The notes under the pieces are model-generated. The model saw nothing but the letters and a program-made list of their open reading frames with translations, had not been told where the DNA came from and made no database searches. Below are positions 473 through 11,941 of a stretch of 24,000 bases of DNA, one piece after another. The DNA lies in NCBI RefSeq assembly GCF_900155475.1, contig NZ_FXAM01000001.1:2776881-2800880 (forward strand), written 5' to 3'. Numbering within the stretch: the stretch's first letter is position 1; the number at the start of each line of letters is the position of its first letter. The position numbers were made by a program, and so were the translations under genes. Source of the DNA: Methylomagnum ishizawai. Lineage in GTDB: Bacteria > Pseudomonadota > Gammaproteobacteria > Methylococcales > Methylococcaceae.

Positions 473-3103
473 ATGACACATCAGCAACCAGCCCCACGGG
501 CGCGACGGTCGGCCACCTGGGTTTTCCTGGCCGGCCTCGCGGGTTTCGGCAGCGCGCAGGCGGCGGTCAACGTCTTCGAGCGCAGCTACGACCCATATCG
601 GACCGGCGCCAACACCGCCGAAACCACCCTCACCCCGGCCAATGTCAAGGCCGACACCAACCAATTCCACAAACGCTTCGCGCTCAAGGTGGATGGCAAG
701 ATCGAGGGCTCGCCGCTCTATGCGTCCCAGGTCAACATCGGCGGCGGCCTCCACAACGTGGTCTATGTCGCCACCATGCACAACACCGTGTATGCCTTCG
801 ACGCCGACAGCGGTGCCCAACTCTCGACCCGCTGGCTGGGCGCCCCGGTCACCGGCAACGATCTCCACACTCTCAAGCCCTTCACCATCCATGGCGAATG
901 GGGCATCGCCAGCACCCCGGTCATCGATCCCGCCACCGGCACTTTATATGTGGTGCGCTGGGGCTATGAAAACGGCACCAGCGGCCCGACCTATCGCTTG
1001 TTCGGGCTGGACATCGGCAACCTCGCCAACGAAAAATTTCCCTCGGTACGGATCGACGGCTACAGCAAGAACGGCGTCGGCTTCGACCGCTACCGCCAGA
1101 TGCAGCGGGCCGGTCTGGCCCTGGCCAAAAAGCCGAATGGTGCCAAGGCCGTGGTCATCGCCTTCGGCGGCGGCGAGGGCCAGAACACGGCGGCGGGCTG
1201 GGTGGTCGCCTTCGACACCGCCAAGCTGCCCCAGGGCAAAGCTTCCCACGATGTCTGGTGTTCCAGCCCCAACAACGGCTCCGGCAGCGGCGGCGGGGCC
1301 GGGATATGGATGGCGAACGCCGCGCCCGCCATCGACGACAACGGCGATATCTATGTCGCCACCGGCAACGGTCCCTACAACCCGGCCTTCGGGGCCGACC
1401 AACTCGGCGAAAGCGCGGTGCGGCTGGTGTGGAATCCCGGCGATCCCGGCGCGTTGGCGGTGGCCGATTGGTTCACGCCCTTCCTCGACCGCGACCGCGA
1501 CGCCGCCCACAAGGATCAAGATTTATCGGCAGGCGGCGTGGTCGCCCTGCCGGAGGGCGGCGGGCTGATCGCCGGCGGCAAGGACGGCGTGTACTACCAC
1601 ATCCACCGCGGCGGCATGGGCCAGCGCGATTACTCCAAGCTGATCGACCCGCCCTTCGTCGCCACCTTCGATTACCAACCTTGGAACGGCCACGGCTCGC
1701 TGTTCGACGACCTGAACCAGATCACCTCGACCGATCCCTTCACCATCGGCCATGTGGACGGTGGCCGCACCCCGCATATCCACGGCACCGGGGTCTATCA
1801 CAACAACCTGCTGTTCGTGCAGGGCGAGAACAACCAAGTGCGGGTGTTCGCCAAGAACAGCGGTCATTTCGGCGCCAGCCCCCTGGCGAAAGGCACGGAA
1901 ACCGCCTCCTGGGGCACCGGCTCGCCGGGCGGGATGCCCGGCGGCATCCTCTCGCTATCGGCCAACGGCACCCAGAACGCCATCCTCTGGGTGAACCAGG
2001 CCGCGGGCAACCTGCCCGGCGACCCCGCCGCCAATATCGCCCCCACGCCGAACATCCTCCGCGCCTACGATGTGTCGAGCGCGGTCGGCGGCACCCTGCA
2101 AATGATATGGGACAGCGAGATGGAGCCGAACGACCACGTCGGCGCAGCGACCAAATTCGCCCCGCCCCTGGTAGCCAACGGCAAGGTCTACATGGCGACC
2201 TACGACAACCAAGTGGTGGTCTATGGCCTGGGTGCCGCGTCGCCGACCCCGAAGCGGGATATCCGCCGCACCGTGGTATTCATCTACGCCCAGACCCAAT
2301 CTGGCCAGGACATGTTCGTGCGGGGCGGGAGCCAGGGCGGTTCCCCCATCCGCATCACCCACCGCAACTGGCTGAACGCCCGCACCAATGTCTACCGCTG
2401 GGGCGACGCTTATCTGGACTGGAACGGCGGCGAACCCGGCCAGGCCCAGCCCGGCGGCGGTTTAGGCGGTGGTTCGCCGGTGGACTGGACCACCAGCGCG
2501 GCCCAGGGCCAGAACCAACCCTATGTGTGGATGGCGGGCTATGGCATCGCCAACGAAAACAACTTCGGGATGCACTACTGGATGCTCGATGCCGACATGG
2601 ATTGCGAGCAGGCGTTCGACGATGGCAAAGGCCATAAGTGGTTCGAGCTGAAGGGCTTCATCGTCACCACGCTCAACAACGCCGTGTCGCCGACGCCGGG
2701 CTGGGAAGGCGATATCTATCAGACGGGCACGCCCTACCCTTCCATCAACCACATGGGCCAGTGCGGGATGGTGAATGTGTTCGTGGCGAACTTCCCCGGA
2801 CGGCCCGCCAATCTGGACCCGAACTCGGCCCAGTTCTTCGCGCCCAGCTATACCTACCTCGCGCCGCTGGACGACCGCAAGGCCGCGGCGGACGTGCTGG
2901 AAAAAACGCCCTGCGTGGCTCCAGGCGTGGAGAAGCGCTGTGTCGGCAATCTGGCCCAGACCTGCCAGACCGTGGAGGGCGGGAAATATTTCCGCACCGC
3001 GCAGAACTGTAATACGTCCTCGGTGGGCGGGAATTTCGTGCAGATGTGCCAGCGCTCGACCGGCCAATGCTGCACGCCCGGTGCCGGGGGAATTTGCCAG
3101 TAA
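473..3103 (+). CDS. Secreted PQQ-like beta-propeller repeat protein with a Cys-rich C-terminal extension
   Basis: 876-aa ORF with strong GC3 bias and a GGAG about 9 nt upstream of the ATG. The N-terminus looks like a signal peptide (RRSATWVFLAGLAGFGSAQA). Repeated motifs such as VYVATMHNTVYAFDADSG and IYVATGNG are typical of PQQ/BamB-like propeller blades. The last ~70 aa contain many Cys (CVAPGVEKRCVGNLAQTCQ...CCTPGAGGICQ). The family call is by motif recollection only. Confidence 0.75.
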   Translation: MTHQQPAPRARRSATWVFLAGLAGFGSAQAAVNVFERSYDPYRTGANTAETTLTPANVKADTNQFHKRFALKVDGKIEGSPLYASQVNIGGGLHNVVYVATMHNTVYAFDADSGAQLSTRWLGAPVTGNDLHTLKPFTIHGEWGIASTPVIDPATGTLYVVRWGYENGTSGPTYRLFGLDIGNLANEKFPSVRIDGYSKNGVGFDRYRQMQRAGLALAKKPNGAKAVVIAFGGGEGQNTAAGWVVAFDTAKLPQGKASHDVWCSSPNNGSGSGGGAGIWMANAAPAIDDNGDIYVATGNGPYNPAFGADQLGESAVRLVWNPGDPGALAVADWFTPFLDRDRDAAHKDQDLSAGGVVALPEGGGLIAGGKDGVYYHIHRGGMGQRDYSKLIDPPFVATFDYQPWNGHGSLFDDLNQITSTDPFTIGHVDGGRTPHIHGTGVYHNNLLFVQGENNQVRVFAKNSGHFGASPLAKGTETASWGTGSPGGMPGGILSLSANGTQNAILWVNQAAGNLPGDPAANIAPTPNILRAYDVSSAVGGTLQMIWDSEMEPNDHVGAATKFAPPLVANGKVYMATYDNQVVVYGLGAASPTPKRDIRRTVVFIYAQTQSGQDMFVRGGSQGGSPIRITHRNWLNARTNVYRWGDAYLDWNGGEPGQAQPGGGLGGGSPVDWTTSAAQGQNQPYVWMAGYGIANENNFGMHYWMLDADMDCEQAFDDGKGHKWFELKGFIVTTLNNAVSPTPGWEGDIYQTGTPYPSINHMGQCGMVNVFVANFPGRPANLDPNSAQFFAPSYTYLAPLDDRKAAADVLEKTPCVAPGVEKRCVGNLAQTCQTVEGGKYFRTAQNCNTSSVGGNFVQMCQRSTGQCCTPGAGGICQ

Positions 3104-3318
3104 GCCGCCGACCGGGGTAGGTCCGAAGCGGCGGGTTGCTCCACGACCCGCCGTGGCGGACGGTGGCGCCGCTGGGGCTGAACTTCACATTCCCTCCAAT
3201 TTGGCTCCATATTCGTCTTCCAGAATGGTCCGCGCTGGCCGGTAGCGCGGCCAAGCTTCCAAAACCACGCCCCCTCGCCGGGGTGCGGCACTCCCCTTCC
3301 CCCGAGGACACCCATCCC

Positions 3319-4182
3319 ATGACCATGCCACCCAATAACGATATTCCGGTACCGGCCCGGCGCCGGTTCTTACTCAACGGAGCGCGGGGCGTGGCCGGAT
3401 TGGCCGCGGCCGCAGCGCTCGGAACCCCCATGGGAACCGCCCTGGCCGCGAGCTACCCGCTTTCGCCCGTGCTGACCGAAGGCCCGTTCTGCCTGGACAA
3501 GAAACTGCTCCGCTCCGATGTCCGCAGCGATTCCACCACCGGGGAAACCACGACCGGCTTCCCTCTCGGCCTACGCATCCGGATCTTCACGCTGAACGCG
3601 AAGGGCAAGACCGTCCCGCTCGCGGGGGCCTATGTGGATATCTGGCATTGCAATGCCCTGGGTTATTACTCCGGCGAGACCAATAACGGTGCCTACGACG
3701 CCAGCACCGTGGATTGGCTGCGCGGCTACCAAGTGACCGATTCCAGGGGGCTGGTCAGGTTCGTTTCCATCTACCCCGGCTGGTACACCGGGCGCACGGT
3801 CCACATCCATGCCCGCATCCGCCTGTACGACGACGCGGGGAACGCCACCTACGACCAAGCCACGCAGATTTTCTTCGACGACGACCTGACCGATATCATC
3901 GCGGCCAAACCCCCCTACACCCACGATACCCAGGTGCGCACTTACAACGCGACCGATTCGATCTATAACGGCGCGTCCAACCATTCCGAAATCGACGGCG
4001 TCACCAGCGATGCCGGAGACGATCTACTAGCCACCACGACCCTGCTCCCCAAGCGTTGCAGCGCCTCGATCCGGCTCGTGATCGACACCAGCGAAGGCGT
4101 GGCCGGGTTGAATTGCCCGACCAGCGCGGACAATAGCGGCGGCGGGGGCGGCGGTGGCACGCCCCCGACACCGCCCTCCTGA
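3319..4182 (+). CDS. Tat-signal intradiol ring-cleavage dioxygenase-like protein
   Basis: The tracked ORF starts at 3136. I prefer the ATG at 3319 (MTMPPNNDIPVPARRRFLLNGARG...ALA) because it gives a twin-arginine RRRF signal. The body has motifs recalled from the intradiol dioxygenase family (DIWHCNALGYYSG, YPGWYTGRTVHIHARI). The C-terminus is a Gly/Pro tail (GGGGGGGTPPTPPS). Confidence 0.7.
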   Translation: MTMPPNNDIPVPARRRFLLNGARGVAGLAAAAALGTPMGTALAASYPLSPVLTEGPFCLDKKLLRSDVRSDSTTGETTTGFPLGLRIRIFTLNAKGKTVPLAGAYVDIWHCNALGYYSGETNNGAYDASTVDWLRGYQVTDSRGLVRFVSIYPGWYTGRTVHIHARIRLYDDAGNATYDQATQIFFDDDLTDIIAAKPPYTHDTQVRTYNATDSIYNGASNHSEIDGVTSDAGDDLLATTTLLPKRCSASIRLVIDTSEGVAGLNCPTSADNSGGGGGGGTPPTPPS

Positions 4183-4205
4183 AGCGCCAGCGCCGCCGGG
4201 CAACA

Positions 4206-4237
4206 AAACAAGGGTTGGCCCATGACAACCCTTGTTT
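4206..4237. terminator. Hairpin between the convergent dioxygenase-like gene and rtcA, a putative bidirectional terminator
   Basis: AAACAAGGGTTG (4206-4217) and CAACCCTTGTTT (4226-4237) are exact reverse complements, separated by an 8-nt loop. The hairpin lies between the two stop codons at 4182 and 4246. The A/T tracts are part of the stem rather than long flanking runs. Confidence 0.55.
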
Positions 4238-4245
4238 CCCGGTCC

Positions 4246-5283
4246 TCAACCATCCCGTCCCACCCCGACCCGAAACGCCCCATCATCCCGCCGTTCCATC
4301 CGAATCTCCACGTCTAAGAAGCGCCGGATCACCCCGGCATTGGTGATAGCGTGCTGGCTCGGCGTCCCCGTGGTGAACGACCCGGCCCCGGCCAGGGCCA
4401 AGGGCAGCAACAATTGATCGGCCAGATACGGACCCACCGCCGCTCCCGCCGCGAGATAACGCCGCGCCTGCTCGACGGTCCGCTCGGCCACGGTTTCCGC
4501 CGCCACGCCCTTTTCCGCGAAGCCGGAAAACACCTCGGTCACTTGTTCATGTTCCAAGGTCAGCAACAAGGCGTTGCCCGGCCCCTGGTCGTTGGCGAGA
4601 CCGCGCAGGTGGAGTTGTTCGGCGTTCCAACCCAGGCGCTTGCCGACCACGTCCAGTTCCCGGCGGGCAATGTGGACCGGCAGGGCGGCGATGAAGCTTT
4701 CCGCGTAGGCTTGGACGCGGGGGCCGCGTTCCTCCAGGACCAAGGGCCGCAGCCGGGGCGCGGGCTCGATGTGGGCGCTGAAACCGCCGCCGCCCGCCGG
4801 ATAGAAACCGAAGCGCTGGAGTTCCAGGGACACCTCCGCGCCCATGCGCCGCAGCAGCGGCAGGAAGGCCCGCTCCAGGAAATGGAACGGCGGCGACATG
4901 GGGTTGTGGGTGCCGCCCTGGAGTTCGACCCGGCTCGGCGCATCGGCCCGCAGCAAAGCCGGGAGGACGGTCTGGAACACCAGGGTACAGCTTCCCGCCG
5001 TGCCGATGGCGAAGCGGTAGTCGCCGCCCCGGACCAGCCCCGGCGCGAAGCCCAAGGTTTGCGAACCGGCCCGGTCGCCTTCGACCGTGGCCCCGCAAAT
5101 CTCCGCCGCCGCCCGCACGGCGGTCAGGTGTTGGCGCATCAGCCCTGGGGTTTTGCGCTTGGCGCGGATATTGACAATGCGGAACGGCGTCCCGGTACAC
5201 AGAGACAGCGACAGCGCCGTCCGCAATACCTGTCCACCACCCTCGCCTTCCGAACCGTCCAGTTCCAAGTATTCATTCACCAT
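4246..5283 (-). CDS. rtcA: RNA 3'-terminal phosphate cyclase
   Basis: 345-aa ORF. The N-terminus LELDGSEGEGGGQVLRTALSLS...GLMRQHLTAVRAAAEICGATVEG and later RGGDYRFAIGTAGSCTLVFQTVLPAL and GPYLADQLLLPLALAG align closely with E. coli RtcA as I recall it. A GGGGG Shine-Dalgarno lies 6 nt upstream of the ATG. Confidence 0.95.
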   Translation of the reverse strand: MVNEYLELDGSEGEGGGQVLRTALSLSLCTGTPFRIVNIRAKRKTPGLMRQHLTAVRAAAEICGATVEGDRAGSQTLGFAPGLVRGGDYRFAIGTAGSCTLVFQTVLPALLRADAPSRVELQGGTHNPMSPPFHFLERAFLPLLRRMGAEVSLELQRFGFYPAGGGGFSAHIEPAPRLRPLVLEERGPRVQAYAESFIAALPVHIARRELDVVGKRLGWNAEQLHLRGLANDQGPGNALLLTLEHEQVTEVFSGFAEKGVAAETVAERTVEQARRYLAAGAAVGPYLADQLLLPLALAGAGSFTTGTPSQHAITNAGVIRRFLDVEIRMERRDDGAFRVGVGRDG

Positions 5284-5318
5284 TTCATGCCCCCGGAATA
5301 TACTTCACATCATAATCC

Positions 5319-5348
5319 TTGACCATCGGGATTATGCCGCATTAAAGT
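5319..5348 (+). promoter_or_regulatory. Candidate sigma70 promoter for the DUF1152-like gene
   Basis: TTGACC (5319-5324), an 18-nt spacer, then TAAAGT (5343-5348), about 36 nt upstream of the ATG at 5384. It sits in the A/T-rich divergent intergenic region shared with rtcA. Motif match only. Confidence 0.25.
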
Positions 5349-5383
5349 CCACATCGAACAAAACGCTGCTTATAGGTTTTAAA

Positions 5384-6325
5384 ATGAAAATTCCCTTTTT
5401 CGACGCCTTATCGGACTCGAAATCCATCCTGATCGCGGGCGCGGGTGGTGGTTTCGACGTGGCAAGTGGAATACCCATCTATTTATATCTACGCAAACTC
5501 GGCAAGCCCGTGGTTCTGGCCAACTTATCCTTCACCGCATTACCGTCCACGGACAGCGATGAAATCTGTCCAGGCACCTATCAGATCACCCAAGAATCGC
5601 GGGATATACCTTACTTTCCAGAGAAATTCATCCTGGAATGGCTAAGCGCCAGGGGCGAGAATCCCGATATCTACGCTTGCTCCAACAAGCTGGGGGTTAT
5701 CCCGCTCGGCCATGCCTATTCGGTGATCGCCCAGAAACACGGTATCGACACACTCATCCTGGTCGATGGCGGCACGGATAGCCTGATGTTCGGCGATGAA
5801 GTAGGGGTCGGCACCATCGTCGAGGATGCCTGTTCCATCATCGCGGCGGCCAAAGTTCCCATCGCCCATCGCTATCTGGTCGCGACCGGGTTTGGTGTCG
5901 ATTATTTCCACGACCTCAATCACCATGCCTGCCTGGAAAATATCGCCACCCTTACCAGGGACGGCGCATACCTGGGTGCCATCGCCTTGACTCAGGATAT
6001 GGACGAGGGACGGGGTTATTTGGAGTTGGTGGAATACCTGAACCGGCGGCTGCCGGGATATATGAGTATCGTCGCCAATTCCATAGCCAGCGCCATCCGG
6101 GGTGAATTCGGGAATTTCCATGTCACCCCCAGGACGAAAGGCAGCGAGTTGTTCATCAATCCCTTTATGGGGTTATTTTGGTTTTTCCAACTACGCGGCG
6201 TGGCTGCGCGGATCGCGTTCGCTTCCAAAATCGACACCAGCGAGACCATGCACGAAGTGGCCCAGGGTTTTCGGCTATTCCGCGCCATGACCATCCGGCG
6301 CACACCGAAAAATATCCCCCTCTGA
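5384..6325 (+). CDS. Uncharacterised glycine-loop protein (DUF1152-like by recollection), opposite strand between rtcB and rtcA
   Basis: The tracked ORF starts at 5087, but that upstream part overlaps rtcA. I prefer the ATG at 5384 (MKIPFFDALSDSKSILIAGAGGGFDVASGIP...). A beta-strand followed by a GAGGGFD loop, and a later LILVDGGTDSLMFGDE motif, resemble what I remember of DUF1152 (PF06626) proteins. My hand count over five 60-nt lines gives about 53% GC, against about 60% or more in rtcB and rtcA. Confidence 0.7.
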   Translation: MKIPFFDALSDSKSILIAGAGGGFDVASGIPIYLYLRKLGKPVVLANLSFTALPSTDSDEICPGTYQITQESRDIPYFPEKFILEWLSARGENPDIYACSNKLGVIPLGHAYSVIAQKHGIDTLILVDGGTDSLMFGDEVGVGTIVEDACSIIAAAKVPIAHRYLVATGFGVDYFHDLNHHACLENIATLTRDGAYLGAIALTQDMDEGRGYLELVEYLNRRLPGYMSIVANSIASAIRGEFGNFHVTPRTKGSELFINPFMGLFWFFQLRGVAARIAFASKIDTSETMHEVAQGFRLFRAMTIRRTPKNIPL

Positions 6326-6335
6326 CGCGGCCCGC

Positions 6336-7556
6336 CTAACCCTTGACGCACACCACCTGCTTGAGGGTATGCACGATCTCCACCAAATCCGCCTGCGCCC
6401 GCATCACCGCGTCGATGTCCTTATAGGCCAGGGGAATCTCGTCGATCACATTCTTGTCCTTGCGGCATTCCACGCCTTCGGTGGCCTGGATTTGGTCGGC
6501 CACGCTGTAGCGGCGCTTGGCCTCGGAGCGCGACATCAAACGCCCCGCGCCGTGGCTGCACGAGCAGAACGACTGCGGCTCGCCCTTGCCGCGCACGATG
6601 TAGGACCGCGCCCCCATCGAACCGGGGATGATGCCGAGTTCGCCTTCCCGCGCCGACACCGCGCCCTTGCGGGTGACGAGGATGTTCTTGCCGAAATGGT
6701 GTTCGCGCTGCACGTAGTTGTGGTGGCAATTCACCGCCTCGACCTCGGCCTCGAACGGCTGGGGCATGATGCGGCGGATGGCCTCGACCACCTGACGCAT
6801 CATCAAGGCCCGGTTGCGGCGGGCGTAATCCTGCGCCCATTCCACCGCTTGCACATAGTCGGTGAAATGTTCGCTTTGCTGCGGGAAATAGGCCAAATCG
6901 GCATCCGGCAGGTTGATGAAATAGCGGCGCATGTCCTCCTTCGCCAGTTCGATGAACAGGTTGCCGATGGCGTTGCCGACGCCCCGCGAGCCCGAGTGCA
7001 GCATGAACCAAACTCGATCCACCTCGTCCAGGCAGACCTCGATGAAGTGATTGCCAGTGCCGAGCGTGCCCAGGTGGTTGCGGTTGTTGGTCTTGGCGAG
7101 CTTGGGGTATTTCGCGGTGATCTCGCGGAATTCCGGCTCCAGTTCGGCCCAGACTTCGTCCACCTCCGGCGGCGGATTCGTCCAGGCGCCCACATCGCGG
7201 CTGCCGGGCGTGCGGCCATGGGGGACGGCTTTTTCGATGGCCGTGCGCCAGCCATGCAGGTGGTCGGGCAGGTCGGCGGCGGTCAGCGAAGTGCGGGCGG
7301 CGATCATCCCGCAGCCGATATCGACCCCGACCGCCGCCGGGATGATGGCCCCGAGGGTCGGGATCACGCTGCCGATGGTGGAGCCCTTGCCGAGATGCAC
7401 GTCCGGCATCACCGCCAGGTGGCTGAAGATGAACGGCAGCCGGGCGATGTTGAAAAGCTGCTGCTTGGCTTCTTCCTCGACCGGGACGCCACGGGTCCAC
7501 ATCTTGATGTGGTGGCCTTGGGTGGGCTGGAGGACTTCGTAGGATTCGTGGTTCAT
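6336..7556 (-). CDS. rtcB: RNA-splicing ligase RtcB (3'-phosphate/5'-hydroxyl RNA ligase)
   Basis: 406-aa ORF. MWTRGVPVEEEAKQQL...PFIFSHLAVMPDVHLGKGSTIGSVIPT, GTLGTGNHFIEVCLDE, NCHHNYV, SFCSCSHGAGR and the C-terminal LKQVVCVKG are near-identical to E. coli RtcB as I recall it. Confidence 0.97.
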   Translation of the reverse strand: MNHESYEVLQPTQGHHIKMWTRGVPVEEEAKQQLFNIARLPFIFSHLAVMPDVHLGKGSTIGSVIPTLGAIIPAAVGVDIGCGMIAARTSLTAADLPDHLHGWRTAIEKAVPHGRTPGSRDVGAWTNPPPEVDEVWAELEPEFREITAKYPKLAKTNNRNHLGTLGTGNHFIEVCLDEVDRVWFMLHSGSRGVGNAIGNLFIELAKEDMRRYFINLPDADLAYFPQQSEHFTDYVQAVEWAQDYARRNRALMMRQVVEAIRRIMPQPFEAEVEAVNCHHNYVQREHHFGKNILVTRKGAVSAREGELGIIPGSMGARSYIVRGKGEPQSFCSCSHGAGRLMSRSEAKRRYSVADQIQATEGVECRKDKNVIDEIPLAYKDIDAVMRAQADLVEIVHTLKQVVCVKG

Positions 7557-7580
7557 GGGCTTTCCCCTGGAATAAAAGGC

Positions 7581-7700
7581 GCGATGACAAGGGATGATGA
7601 AATTCCTATTCGCTACCGGCCATAGGCCGACCGGGACTTGAACCCGGAACCTGCGGATCGCTCCGCCGCTTTACCATGTAATTCCATCGGCATTCATCGC
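7581..7700 (-). ncRNA. Y-RNA-like module 6 (T-arm plus GNRA hairpin, degenerate D region)
   Basis: Minus-strand RNA: GCGAUGA-AUGCC-GAUGGAAUU-ACAUGGUAAAGC-GCGGA GCGA UCCGC-AGGUU-CCGGG UUCAAGU CCCGG-U-CGGCC UAU GGCCG-GUAGCGAAUAGG-AAUUUCAUC-AUCCCUUG-UCAUCGC. It ends 24 nt upstream of the rtcB ATG. Confidence 0.7.
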
Positions 7701-7711
7701 TAAAAAAGCTT

Positions 7712-7838
7712 GGGCGACAAGGGGTTGGTGAAACTTGCCCGGTGTTCTACCACTGAACTACGGTCCTATGGGTAGCGGGACCGACGGGGATCGAACCCGC
7801 GACTTCCGGGGTAGATGTAGTTCCACCCGCATTCGCCC
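7712..7838 (-). ncRNA. Y-RNA-like module 5 (permuted tRNA-like, YrlA-type topology)
   Basis: Minus-strand RNA: GGGCGA-AUGCG-GGUGGAAC-UACAUCUA-CCCGG-AAGUC-GCGGG UUCGAUC CCCGU-CGGUCC CGCUACCCAUA GGACCG-UA-GUUC AGUGGUA GAAC-A-CCGGG-CAA-GUUUCACC-AACCCCUUG-UCGCCC. CCGGG pairs with CCCGG as an anticodon-like stem that continues into the connector helix and the terminal stem. Confidence 0.8.
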
Positions 7839-7856
7839 AAAATTATCGAAAAAAGC

Positions 7857-7965
7857 GGCGCGACAAGGATCGGCAAGACTTCTGCTCTACCGACTGAGCT
7901 ACCGCGCCGAAGCACGGGCCGGGATCGAACCGGCGACATGAGGTAGTCCTGCCCGCATTCGCACC
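7857..7965 (-). ncRNA. Y-RNA-like module 4 (permuted tRNA-like)
   Basis: Minus-strand RNA: GGUGCGA-AUGCG-GGCAGGACU-ACCUCAUGUC-GCCGG UUCGAUC CCGGC-CCGUGC UUCG GCGCGG-UA-GCUC AGUCGGUA GAGC-AGA-AGUCUUGCC-GAUCCUUG-UCGCGCC. It has a canonical D-arm and T-arm. The acceptor stem is closed by a UUCG tetraloop, and a 9-bp connector takes the anticodon-stem position. Confidence 0.8.
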
Positions 7966-7985
7966 AAACAGCCATCAAAAAAGAT

Positions 7986-8106
7986 GGGCGACAAGGTGTG
8001 GTGAAACAAGGCGCTCTGGCCTCTGAGCTACGGTCCCGAAGGACCGGCGGGAATCGAACCCGCGACCTCCCGCGTGACAGGCGTGTAGTTCCACCGGCAT
8101 TCGCCC
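7986..8106 (-). ncRNA. Y-RNA-like module 3 (permuted tRNA-like, tRNA-Asp-related)
   Basis: Minus-strand RNA: GGGCGA-AUGCC-GGUGGAAC-UA-CACGC CUGUCAC GCGGG-AGGUC-GCGGG UUCGAUU CCCGC-CGGUCC UUCG GGACCG-UA-GCUC AGAGGCCA GAGC-G-CCUU-GUUUCACC-ACACCUUG-UCGCCC. The T-arm, a UUCG-capped acceptor stem and the D-arm are all present, in permuted order. Confidence 0.8.
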
Positions 8107-8125
8107 AAAATCGTCATAAAAAGCT

Positions 8126-8230
8126 GTGCGACAAAACGGGGTTGGACTCGAACCTGGGTCGCCCCAGGCTCCGGGACTTGAACCCGAGCGGTTGCCCGCC
8201 TACCTGATGTAGTCCAACCGGCATTCGCAC
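8126..8230 (-). ncRNA. Y-RNA-like module 2 (T-arm plus GNRA-capped hairpins)
   Basis: Minus-strand RNA: GUGCGA-AUGCC-GGUUGGACU-ACAUCAGGUAG-GCGG GCAA CCGC-U-CGGG UUCAAGU CCCG-GAG-CCUGGG GCGA CCCAGG-UUCG-AGUCCAACC-CCGUUUUG-UCGCAC. It has the terminal stem and a 9-bp connector. It also has a T-arm with a canonical 7-nt UUCAAGU loop and two GNRA-capped hairpins. There is no clear D-arm. Confidence 0.7.
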
Positions 8231-8242
8231 ATCAACCTAAGT

Positions 8243-8324
8243 GCGGAGGCCCGCGACAAGAATTCGGTGTGATCGCGCTATCGGAACAATCGATGTAATC
8301 ACACCGGCATTCGCGGGCCTCCGC
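8243..8324 (-). ncRNA. Y-RNA-like module 1 (simple stem-loop, YrlB-like, no tRNA-like element)
   Basis: Minus-strand RNA: GCGGAGGCCCGCGA-AUGCC-GGUGUGAU-UACAUCGAUUGUUCCGAUAGCGCG-AUCACACC-GAAUUCUUG-UCGCGGGCCUCCGC. It has a 14-bp terminal stem and an 8-bp second helix. It starts 7 nt after the rsr stop codon. Confidence 0.75.
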
Positions 8325-8331
8325 CCAACAC

Positions 8332-9894
8332 TTACAAAACCATCTCTTCGATCACGCCGGCCCAATGCGCCGCCGTCAATTGCCCGGCCGCGAACGCCGC
8401 CAGCACCTTGAACACCTCGTCGGAGAACCCGCCGATGTTCAAAATATCCCCGCGTTCCGCCGCCTGGGTCGTGCCGTAGGGCTGGATGTCGATGCAGACC
8501 AAGCGGGCCTCCGGGTTGCGCTGGCGGAAGATTTCCCATTCCTTCAAGGTGGCCGTGGCCCCATGCCGGACAGCGTCCACCCAGGATTGATTATCCGAGA
8601 CGAACACCACCAGATCGGCCCGGGCCTTTTCGCGGTTCAGCAAGGCCAAAGGAGCGCTGCAATTGGTTCCGCCGCCCCCGACCGCCGCCAGCCTTTCGGC
8701 ATTGGCCAGCACCGTGGCGCGGGCATCCAAAGCCACCGACACCACATCGGTCTCGAAGGGCAAGACCCGCGTCTCGGGGTTCTTGCGCAGCAACGCCGCC
8801 GCCACCAAGGCCGCCACATCGACACAGCGCACCGACGTGGTCGCCGATCCGCGTTGGCCCGTGACCGGGGAACGCATCGAACCGGACACGTCCGGGCAGA
8901 CCACCACCCGGCCCGCCAATTCCGGCACGTTGGCGAGCGCGGTTTCCATAGCCTGCTGCAAAGCTTCCCGGACCTGGGCGGGCACGCCTTGCCCGACCGA
9001 GCGGTAGGCCGCCAGCAATTGGTACGGGAACACCTTGGCGCGGGCGATGGCCGCCGGATCGCGCAGTTTGTCCGCCACCACCTCCGCCATGCCTTCCATG
9101 GCAAACACGCCATGCCGGGCAAAGGTGTTCAGATTCATCCGCACCATCTGCCAACCGCTACAGCGGGCGATCCGCGCCCATTGTTTGGTGTCCAGATTCA
9201 AAGCCGTCAGCATTTGGAACGGCACCTCCGGCGGTTCGCCGCCGGGGTCGCGCTTCCAGGCTTCAAAAGCCTGGGTGATGGGTGGCAAGGCCGCCGCATC
9301 GTAGGGCTTGCCGATCAACCAGGCGAAAAAGGCTTCGCGCCAGGGCTCGGCGGGCTTGGGATGCACCATCTTCACCACATCGACCAGGGAGGGCGCGTTG
9401 CCCACGGCGGCGTTCAGCAAATCCTTCTCGGAAGCTTGGTTCAGCCAGTGCTGCACCAGCTTCTTGGGCCGGGTGCCCAGGGACTTCCGGCCCACCGCGC
9501 CGCTCCGCAAAATCTGCACGAAGTTCCGCAGCATCCGGCCATTGCCGACCACCCGGTCGAACACCTGGGGCAGGAATTCCGGTCCCCGCAGGGTCAACAC
9601 CGCCGCCAACAAGGCCGGGATATCTTTCATATAACCCCGCTCGCGGCAGTAAACGGCGGTCTTGGCGATGAAGCGCGGCTCCACCTCGCGGCACAGGTCG
9701 AGGATCGTCGCCAATTGCGCTTCGGCCCCGGCGTAGAACGTGCCGTTCAGGCAGCCGGTCGCGGCGTATTGGGCCAGCCGGTGCTTGGGGCTGAAAGCAT
9801 AGGCGGGAGCGCCTTCGTGGTTACGGCCATCGGCCACCGGCAGGGCACGGCCCCGCGTGCTTTGGAACAATTGTGGATTCGCCATGGCGTTCAT
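8332..9894 (-). CDS. rsr: Ro60-related (TROVE plus vWA domain) RNA-binding protein Rsr
   Basis: 520-aa ORF. The N-terminus (NHEGAPAYAFSPKHRLAQYAATGCLNGTFYAGAEAQL) matches the TROVE/Ro60 pattern I recall. The C-terminal part (VVCPDVSGSMRSPV...GGGTNCSAPL...VVFVSDNQSW) looks like a vWA/MIDAS domain. Its position upstream of Y-like RNAs and rtcB, and divergent from rtcR, fits the known rsr locus layout. The second in-frame ATG at 9885 is an alternative start. Confidence 0.93.
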   Translation of the reverse strand: MNAMANPQLFQSTRGRALPVADGRNHEGAPAYAFSPKHRLAQYAATGCLNGTFYAGAEAQLATILDLCREVEPRFIAKTAVYCRERGYMKDIPALLAAVLTLRGPEFLPQVFDRVVGNGRMLRNFVQILRSGAVGRKSLGTRPKKLVQHWLNQASEKDLLNAAVGNAPSLVDVVKMVHPKPAEPWREAFFAWLIGKPYDAAALPPITQAFEAWKRDPGGEPPEVPFQMLTALNLDTKQWARIARCSGWQMVRMNLNTFARHGVFAMEGMAEVVADKLRDPAAIARAKVFPYQLLAAYRSVGQGVPAQVREALQQAMETALANVPELAGRVVVCPDVSGSMRSPVTGQRGSATTSVRCVDVAALVAAALLRKNPETRVLPFETDVVSVALDARATVLANAERLAAVGGGGTNCSAPLALLNREKARADLVVFVSDNQSWVDAVRHGATATLKEWEIFRQRNPEARLVCIDIQPYGTTQAAERGDILNIGGFSDEVFKVLAAFAAGQLTAAHWAGVIEEMVL

Positions 9895-9925: not shown

Positions 9926-9941
9926 TGCAGCCGCCGTGCCA
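9926..9941 (-). promoter_or_regulatory. Sigma54 (-24/-12) promoter for rsr, the Y-RNA array and rtcB
   Basis: The minus strand reads TGGCACGGCGGCTGCA. It has the GG and GC elements at the canonical spacing of the TGGCACG-N4-TTGCW consensus. The -12 element lies about 30 nt upstream of the rsr ATG, and the sigma54 activator gene rtcR is divergent from it. Confidence 0.7.
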
Positions 9942-10075: not shown

Positions 10076-11668
<1,593 letters not shown>

Positions 11669-11941
11669 ACGAATGTCCGCCGGCGTCCAAAGCTTGCTTT
11701 GGACTCCCGGCCAGGGGCAGTGGAAGGTTCCGCCACAAAATCATCCAGAAACCTTCATCCTGTTGTAAAATCAACGCCTTGGATACGGGCGCCCAAGCGC
11801 TTGTTTTCCATCGGTTGGCTGGCCGCGATTCCCGTGCCGGTGTCCGGCGTTCCAACCCAAGCCCCATGTTAGCGATGACACGGGGTTTTTTATGCCCGGC
11901 GGTTCCCGCCGCTTCCCCATCACGACAACCCGACCCTATCC

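Follow-up and report, generated by a model that had tools for sequence, protein, structure and literature searches.

A DUF1152 gene lying between rtcB and rtcA in Methylomagnum ishizawai is probably a genus-specific passenger of the Rtc RNA-repair locus

In the canonical Rtc RNA-repair loci, as set out in three reports (PMC3854526, PMC7790460, PMC9650030), the gene rtcR is divergent from an operon that ends in rtcBA, with the arrangement rtcR <> rtcBA in Escherichia coli and rtcR <> rsr-yrlBA-rtcBA in Salmonella Typhimurium. Here we analyze a stretch of 24,000 nucleotides (nt) from Methylomagnum ishizawai (assembly GCF_900155475.1, contig NZ_FXAM01000001.1, positions 2,776,881 to 2,800,880), referred to throughout as the window, which holds a complete Rtc locus composed of a divergent rtcR followed on the minus strand by rsr, Y RNAs, rtcB and rtcA. 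The window shares with the canonical loci their gene order, the divergent rtcR and an upstream sigma-54 -24/-12 element. Unlike them, it carries five YrlA-like copies instead of one, and its rtcB and rtcA, rather than following each other closely, lie 1,052 nt apart with an opposite-strand gene between them. We identify this gene as a member of DUF1152 (PF06626), a known but uncharacterized family that is found here in an unusual, lineage-specific position. Our data support that 5284-6335 is a genus-specific insertion of a self-contained single-gene unit into the rtcB-rtcA spacer of a canonical locus, and that the gene is a passenger, a reading to which we give a probability of roughly 80%; it is less likely that DUF1152 adds a new factor to RNA repair. 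The segment is arranged as follows, with lengths of proteins given in amino acids (aa).

4246..5283, minus strand: rtcA (RNA 3'-terminal phosphate cyclase), 345 aa, intact; Pfam RTC (E=3e-80) and RTC_insert.
5284..5383: divergent intergenic region of 100 nt, AT-rich, with a guanine-plus-cytosine (GC) content of 41%; rtcA-side edge of the inserted segment.
5384..6325, plus strand: DUF1152 gene, 942 nt, 313 aa; PF06626; predicted Rossmann-like alpha/beta protein.
6326..6335: convergent gap between the rtcB and DUF1152 stop codons, 10 nt, CGCGGCCCGC; identical in M. ishizawai L081.
6336..7556, minus strand: rtcB RNA ligase, 406 aa; Pfam RtcB (E=2.6e-131).

These coordinates agree in full with those of an earlier reading made from the letters of the window (the sequence-only reading), which had placed a 942-nt plus-strand gene between rtcB and rtcA with gaps of 10 and 100 nt.

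The history of the segment can be read from the relatives of its neighbors. Besides the window, the rtcA(-)/DUF1152(+)/rtcB(-) layout was found only in the M. ishizawai genome L081, whose DNA is 95% identical to the window across 4246-7706 and 96% identical over the 100-nt divergent region. Outside Methylomagnum, the nearest RtcA relatives are P0123, P0124 and P0125 (85%, 80% and 79% identity), and in their loci, L088, L086 and L090, rtcB and rtcA sit on one strand with spacers of 13, 75 and 47 nt, respectively. Two of these loci, L086 and L090, have the order rtcR <> rsr - YrlA copies - rtcB - rtcA, while in L088, which encodes P0123, the upstream C-terminal fragment of RtcB is 97% identical to that of the window and is followed 13 nt on by rtcA. 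Since the closest RtcA relatives have contiguous rtcB and rtcA, the ancestral rtcBA pair was contiguous and the 1,052 nt of 5284-6335 were inserted in the Methylomagnum lineage, which bears out the proposal of the sequence-only reading that the gene was a later acquisition. Neither neighbor was damaged at the junctions, as judged from the full-length match of the rtcA product to the NCBIfam equivalog NF003246 (457 bits, cut-off 352) and from the intact C-terminus of RtcB (...KQVVCVKG), which agrees with that of the L088 protein.

The view of the sequence-only reading that the product was DUF1152-like proved correct, as the protein matches PF06626 with E=1.9e-16 (60.6 bits, gathering cut-off 27), and the same model is matched by all 30 aligned homologues and carried by every one of the best 120 homologue matches listed. 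The PF06626 model derives from archaeal sequences, and its alignment with the window protein is confined to residues 93-296. The ATG at 5384 is the start codon, given that the MxIPFF opening it produces is common to the 30 aligned homologues. A large protein collection contains about 5,000 homologues, the best being an M. ishizawai 'DUF1152 domain-containing protein' (P0001) with 97% identity over 313 aa; neither from this protein nor from the Pfam DUF1152 members does the window protein differ at the protein level, and GxGGGxD and DGGTD loops and acidic residues are held in common. A profile search of representatives yielded 1,859 clusters at 50% identity, nearly all of them stand-alone proteins of about 310-320 aa. 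Domain fusions, which we left out of the evidence, are rare and inconsistent (one CDF transporter with DUF1152 and one DUF1152 with a cytidylyltransferase-like domain), and in the remaining long forms no Pfam domain other than DUF1152 is present. Members of the family are also encoded by giant viruses of the Klosneuvirinae, namely Hyperionvirus, Klosneuvirus and Terrestrivirus (BFVD entries A0A3G5AD54, A0A1V0SJT1 and A0A3G4ZPD9). DUF1152 is a widespread but patchy family. It occurs in Bacteria and in giant viruses, while the Pfam description is based on archaeal proteins, and its members are almost always stand-alone and without conserved neighbors. No NCBIfam model matches the protein, and a search of a literature library found no paper with 'DUF1152' or 'PF06626'. 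A defense or phage family was also considered and rejected, as comparison with PADLOC and PHROGs gave no match at E<=0.1.

If DUF1152 were a component of the Rtc system, it would be expected to recur beside rtcB, rtcA, rsr or rtcR across taxa. We surveyed 80 genome loci with homologues of 40-64% identity and up to 8 kb of flank on each side, drawn from at least 12 phyla (Proteobacteria, Bacteroidota, Planctomycetota, Verrucomicrobiota, Myxococcota, Actinomycetota, Chloroflexota, Deinococcota, Abditibacteriota, Acidobacteriota, Melainabacteria and others), together with six closer homologues that were looked up one by one. The 80 loci were queried by tblastn with the RtcA, RtcB, Rsr and RtcR of the window, using cut-offs of E<=1e-5 and E<=0.01. 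RtcA, Rsr or RtcR occurred within about 8 kb in none of the 86 independent loci. RtcB was nearby in a single one (L042), with the same outcome at both cut-offs for the 80 loci; one in 86 is about what chance allows, the expectation being roughly estimated at 0.1-0.3. The six closer homologues (78, 67, 67, 62, 62 and 60% identity, the last from Methylomonas) all reside in unrelated contexts, with neighbors that include a YdjM/M20 peptidase, DUF29/rhodanese/Dtd, an aromatic lyase/ADH, a LysR regulator, an amidohydrolase/radical SAM protein and a nif-carrying locus. Homologues 60-78% identical in other methanotrophs sit elsewhere, and the Rtc loci there are canonical.

No other partner emerged either. 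When all flanking open reading frames (ORFs) were clustered, every family was confined to 11 or fewer of the 80 loci, and the larger clusters were led by Streptomyces loci, fitting synteny within that genus. The 122 ORFs lying next to DUF1152 on its own strand matched 84 different Pfam families; TerD, the most frequent of them, was seen five times, and RNA-repair families were absent from the 25 commonest neighbor families listed. Nor is DUF1152 co-directional with the RtcR-dependent operon, as it lies on the plus strand while the sigma-54 element, rsr, rtcB and rtcA lie on the minus strand. Given the lack of Rtc or Rsr enrichment and of recurring neighbors, we consider the position of DUF1152 inside the cassette an accident of insertion rather than evidence for a repair function. 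The sequence-only reading had taken this embedding as a hint of a role in RNA end-healing or sealing and had named missing enrichment near these genes as what would count against it. That part of its interpretation therefore falls, whereas the family identity, the later insertion, the atypical composition and the lack of a terminator stand.

Base composition sets the gene apart from its surroundings. Its GC content is 55.0% (the sequence-only reading had estimated about 53%), against 64.0% for rtcB and 67.8% for rtcA, and its GC at third codon positions is 67.8%, against 80-87% in neighboring genes, confirming that its composition is atypical. Among 942-nt segments of the 24 kb, only 2% have a GC content this low; those with the ten lowest values begin at 5221-5311 and cover the intergenic gap and most of the DUF1152 gene. 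Similar offsets are seen in several proteobacterial hosts, where the GC of DUF1152 falls far below that of its flanks (0.465 versus 0.612, 0.417 versus 0.627 and 0.558 versus 0.663). In the loci L083, L018, L001 and L085 the difference amounts to 8-21 points, compared with a mean of just -2 points over the 77 loci analyzed. Because low GC recurs in other hosts, it is a trait of a subclade that fits repeated transfer and offers no clean dating signal, and it suggests that this DUF1152 subclade has been repeatedly transferred or is compositionally constrained. The ratio of nonsynonymous to synonymous divergence (dN/dS) relative to L081 is 0.15 for DUF1152, 0.10 for rtcA and 0.075 for rtcB, and all three genes are under purifying selection. 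The roughly 5,000 homologues, the dN/dS of 0.15 and a structure prediction with a predicted local distance difference test (pLDDT) score of 94 collectively establish the DUF1152 ORF as a real gene and not a chance reading frame.

That prediction, an AlphaFold2 model built from a 30-sequence alignment (pLDDT 94.1, predicted template modelling score 0.93), alternates strands and helices around seven main strands. The GAGGGFD and VDGGTDS loops pointed out by the sequence-only reading are conserved and each follows a predicted strand, the former (residues 19-25) coming after strand 1 and the latter (127-133) after strand 123-128. In a 39-sequence alignment at 30-60% identity, the invariant positions are G19, G21-23, D25, E80, D128, G129, G130, D132, G137, E139, D148 and G198, a set that amounts to two glycine loops and six acidic side chains (D25, E80, D128, D132, E139 and D148). 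Foldseek searches of the PDB gave generic Rossmann-like matches only, with template modelling (TM) scores of at most 0.40 normalized to the query and root-mean-square deviations (rmsd) of 5-11 Å. Class-I S-adenosylmethionine (SAM) methyltransferases (9sm3; terpene C-methyltransferases), LmbE/PIG-L deacetylases (5bmo, MshB), SurE and UspA (1jmv) resemble the model in their three-layer alpha/beta/alpha architecture, in their parallel sheet and in the glycine-rich loop that follows strand 1. Query TM scores to these generic folds are 0.2-0.4 at 9-16% identity, and none of their catalytic motifs was identified in the DUF1152 protein, be it the acidic residue that binds SAM after strand 2, the HxDD zinc site or the NDDG motif of SurE. 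Sequence and profile searches of the PDB returned nothing below E=0.05, and matches to CD8 and MutS, which lie above that value, were discarded as noise. In a BFVD search the fold recurs in giant viruses of the Klosneuvirinae, where the Hyperionvirus protein A0A3G5AD54 superimposes on the window model with a TM score of 0.82 and an rmsd of 2.5 Å.

Two kinships brought to mind by the loops were compared directly. FtsZ/tubulin kinship, prompted by the GGGG and GGT loops, was rejected, given that hhalign against an E. coli FtsZ sequence entered by hand gave a probability of 0.5% over 16 aligned columns; the top 50 Foldseek PDB matches contain no FtsZ or tubulin chain. The resemblance of DGGTDS to the SGGxDS motif of PP-loop/HUP proteins is accompanied by weak Foldseek matches to UspA (TM 0.22-0.24 by query, 0.48-0.49 by target), TilS and TtuA. 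The DUF1152 motif differs in that it begins with Asp instead of Ser and follows strand 123-128 instead of strand 1, and no sequence-profile match accompanies it. Based on the model, we infer a soluble three-layer Rossmann-like alpha/beta enzyme whose active site probably lies along the C-terminal edge of its sheet of parallel strands, where it would comprise the GxGGGxD and DGGTD loops and the invariant acidic cluster. Nucleotide or phosphate binding by glycine loops on such a fold is plausible. A more specific proposal, in which the enzyme depends on a divalent metal and this edge receives a small ligand that is phosphorylated or nucleotide-like, is put forward as a tentative possibility.

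Several observations weigh against the passenger reading or against the biochemical picture attached to it. Mobile-element scars are missing, in that 5284-6335 is not bordered by direct or inverted repeats of any note and the short matches found there fit chance, and no integrase or transposase was found that accounts for the arrival of the insert. Our neighborhood survey is confined to non-archaeal contexts of the family. In L042, a deltaproteobacterial metagenome-assembled genome, DUF1152 (+) is followed after about 600 nt by an RbfA-like gene (+), RtcB (+) and a divergent Thg1-like gene (-), all within 4 kb (4432-8571), and this position of DUF1152 about 1 kb upstream of an RbfA-like/RtcB/Thg1-like set leaves some room for a weak recurrent link. 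The insert has been kept in two diverged Methylomagnum genomes, between which it is also less diverged (2.7%) than the flanks 4246-5283 and 6336-7706 (5.8%; Fisher p=4.6e-5). Third-position differences amount to 5.4% in the insert and 10-14% in the flanks, and synonymous divergence (dS) to 0.075 and 0.17-0.24, respectively. A pure passenger model does not predict this low divergence, for which recent recombinational spread, composition-dependent mutation or a constraint imposed by transcription of both strands are possible explanations. With respect to biochemistry, the 39 aligned sequences hold no invariant His, Lys, Arg or Cys, so that an invariant basic residue for phosphate binding is missing, and the assignment is built entirely from motifs and a predicted fold.

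The insert also changes the way in which rtcA could be transcribed, since it physically uncouples this gene from rtcB. Consensus scans gave four sigma-70-like matches in 6.1 kb, three of which fall in the 100-nt gap and are listed here together with an inverted repeat identified by folding the intergenic region.

5297..5325, minus strand: candidate sigma-70-like promoter of rtcA, TGGTCA-17-TATATT, 9/12 consensus matches.
5311..5336: 9-bp inverted repeat CATAATCCT / GGGATTATG, overlapping both -35-like hexamers; identical in L081.
5319..5348, plus strand: candidate sigma-70-like promoter of the DUF1152 gene, TTGACC-18-TAAAGT, 9/12 consensus matches.
100-nt gap, plus strand: candidate sigma-70-like promoter, TTCACC-17-TATACT.

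The minus strand does contain the TTGTTC-N19-CATAAT element (5361..5356 and 5336..5331) that the sequence-only reading had proposed as a weak promoter, and the inverted repeat at 5311-5336 is a possible operator. This upstream region is not conserved ahead of other DUF1152 genes, and no motif travels with the family outside Methylomagnum. Transcription of the DUF1152 gene probably starts from a sigma-70-type promoter of its own within the AT-rich gap, which may have come with the insertion or arisen at it. As rtcA is full-length and under purifying selection, it is presumably still expressed, and two routes can be envisaged. In one, the RtcR/sigma-54 transcript would run on past rtcB and through 1,052 nt antisense to the insert, encountering no terminator-like stop; in the other, rtcA would depend on a weak promoter within the 100-nt gap. 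The antisense geometry is as the sequence-only reading had drawn it, with a sigma-54-like element upstream on the minus strand, and its observation that the convergent gap lacks a terminator hairpin is upheld by folds of 6290-6380 on both strands (z-scores 0.0 and -0.6) and by the consensus scan, in which terminator-like sites are not above chance (6 found, 6.2 expected). In E. coli, RtcR activation depends on RtcA as well as on RtcB (PMC9650030), so that uncoupling of rtcA could matter physiologically.

The remaining parts of the locus are as follows.

7578..8319, minus strand: array of five YrlA-like Y RNAs and a weak YrlB-like element; Rfam RF02553 and RF02565.
8332..9894, minus strand: rsr (Ro60 orthologue), first gene of the operon; Pfam vWA_Ro60 (3.5e-18) and TROVE (1e-6).
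9941..9926, minus strand: sigma-54 -24/-12 promoter-like element TGGCACGGCGGCTGCA, 32 nt upstream of the rsr ATG.
10076..11668, plus strand: rtcR, sigma-54 activator with RtcR/CARF N-domain; NCBIfam NF038308 (811 bits, cut-off 650) and Pfam RtcR (4e-80).

The five YrlA-like modules score 36.8 (7578-7700), 67.1 (7708-7839), 74.1 (7854-7965), 75.0 (7982-8107) and 36.0 bits (8122-8231) against RF02553, and the YrlB-like element at 8248-8319 scores 22 bits against RF02565. All of them lie between rsr and rtcB, and the five YrlA-like copies outnumber those of L086 (three) and L090 (two). The sigma-54-like element has one mismatch to TGGCAC-N5-TTGCW. Its 15-nt core TGGCACGGCGGCTGC is unchanged in L081, and TGGCACACCGATTGC is also found near the rsr start in L086 and L090.

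Differences between the two Methylomagnum genomes extend beyond the insert. Where the window has rsr and four YrlA copies (7707-9847), L081 has a replacement (10326-11893) encoding a 249-aa AbiJ-like protein (PADLOC E=1.8e-5) and a PIN/MazE pair, while the sigma-54 promoter is kept, as are the initial ~35 nt of the rsr ORF and a single YrlA-like copy beside rtcB. From this arrangement, the RNase-toxin-like genes of L081 appear to be under RtcR/sigma-54 control. On the other side of the locus, the window segment 3115-4245 contains a 348-aa ORF that begins with TTG (3136-4182) and weakly matches Dioxygenase_C (E=1.3e-9); this ORF is absent in L081, where only 67 nt separate the flanking genes, making this a second strain-specific indel beside the Rtc locus. 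A perfect 11-bp inverted repeat, AACAAGGGTTG...CAACCCTTGTT, lies at 4207-4236 between the converging ends of this dioxygenase-like ORF and rtcA; it was read by eye and is absent from the consensus-scan output, and it is likely a bidirectional terminator closing the rtc transcription unit. Further out, a plus-strand ORF of 876 aa (473-3103) has no Pfam family above threshold, a weak PQQ_2 match (E=0.002) and 96.7% amino acid identity in L081.

Could the gene nevertheless have been recruited to the Rtc system? An accessory or antagonistic factor that acts on RNA ends or on RtcA, RtcB or RtcR would fit its location between rtcB and rtcA, the purifying selection seen in two Methylomagnum genomes, and glycine loops and an acidic cluster that are compatible with nucleotide chemistry. 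The independent locus L042, where DUF1152 lies near RbfA-RtcB-Thg1-like genes, points in the same direction, as does the presence of the family in Klosneuvirinae, which carry large translation-related gene sets. We nevertheless give this explanation hardly any credence, since the Rtc and Rsr counts of the survey hardly exceed chance, the gene is opposite in strand to the sigma-54 operon and hence not co-induced by RtcR, the homologues of other methanotrophs sit away from their canonical Rtc loci, and the literature search gave it no support. A bolder version, in which a nucleotide- or RNA-end-directed enzyme was co-opted into the Methylomagnum repair module with an antisense switch, such that RtcR read-through silences DUF1152 while delivering rtcA or DUF1152 transcription throttles rtcA, strikes us as very improbable too; if it were true, L042 and the Klosneuvirinae proteins would offer the earliest clues that the family is linked to translation or RNA.

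The insert may instead have acquired a regulatory role irrespective of its product, in that convergent or antisense transcription could tune the dosage of rtcA relative to rtcB or silence DUF1152 in RNA stress, and rtcA may have gained, through a promoter in the 100-nt gap, RtcR-independent basal expression. The 10-nt gap has no terminator and the insert none above chance, three of the four sigma-70-like sites crowd into the 100-nt gap with one facing rtcA, a conserved palindrome spans both -35-like elements, and the low dS could mean a constraint on both strands; the E. coli requirement for RtcA in RtcR activation (PMC9650030) would make its dosage matter. Yet the promoter matches are weak (9/12) and come from consensus only, the low divergence has other explanations, such as recent recombination or base composition, and a layout limited to one genus leaves no room for comparative support, so that we regard such a role as improbable. 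A further possibility is that the Methylomagnum Rtc locus is a hot spot for horizontally acquired cargo, with DUF1152 as one of several cassettes that are possibly related to conflict or defense. Two more cassette-sized indels between the Methylomagnum genomes (the 7707-9847 swap and the absence of 3115-4245 from L081) and the low GC of DUF1152 relative to several proteobacterial hosts are in line with this idea. It sits less easily with the missing PADLOC and PHROGs matches, with the ordinary metabolic neighborhoods, rather than defense islands, in which other DUF1152 genes reside, and with the failure to find an integrase, transposase or flanking repeats; on balance, we deem it unlikely. The insertion of a self-contained passenger gene therefore remains the reading we prefer.

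Our analysis illustrates that the placement of a gene within an operon, when seen in one genome only, is a poor guide to its function, as the comparative survey removes the RNA-repair link that had been inferred from it. DUF1152 itself is a large uncharacterized family (about 1,900 clusters at 50% identity) with a confident predicted structure and no close solved relative, and is thus a fair target for structural or ligand screening. In Methylomagnum, the Rtc locus is visibly plastic, as rsr and YrlA have been exchanged for toxin-like genes in L081. Finally, with rtcA uncoupled from rtcB, the locus constitutes a natural experiment that could show how much the co-transcription of these two genes matters.

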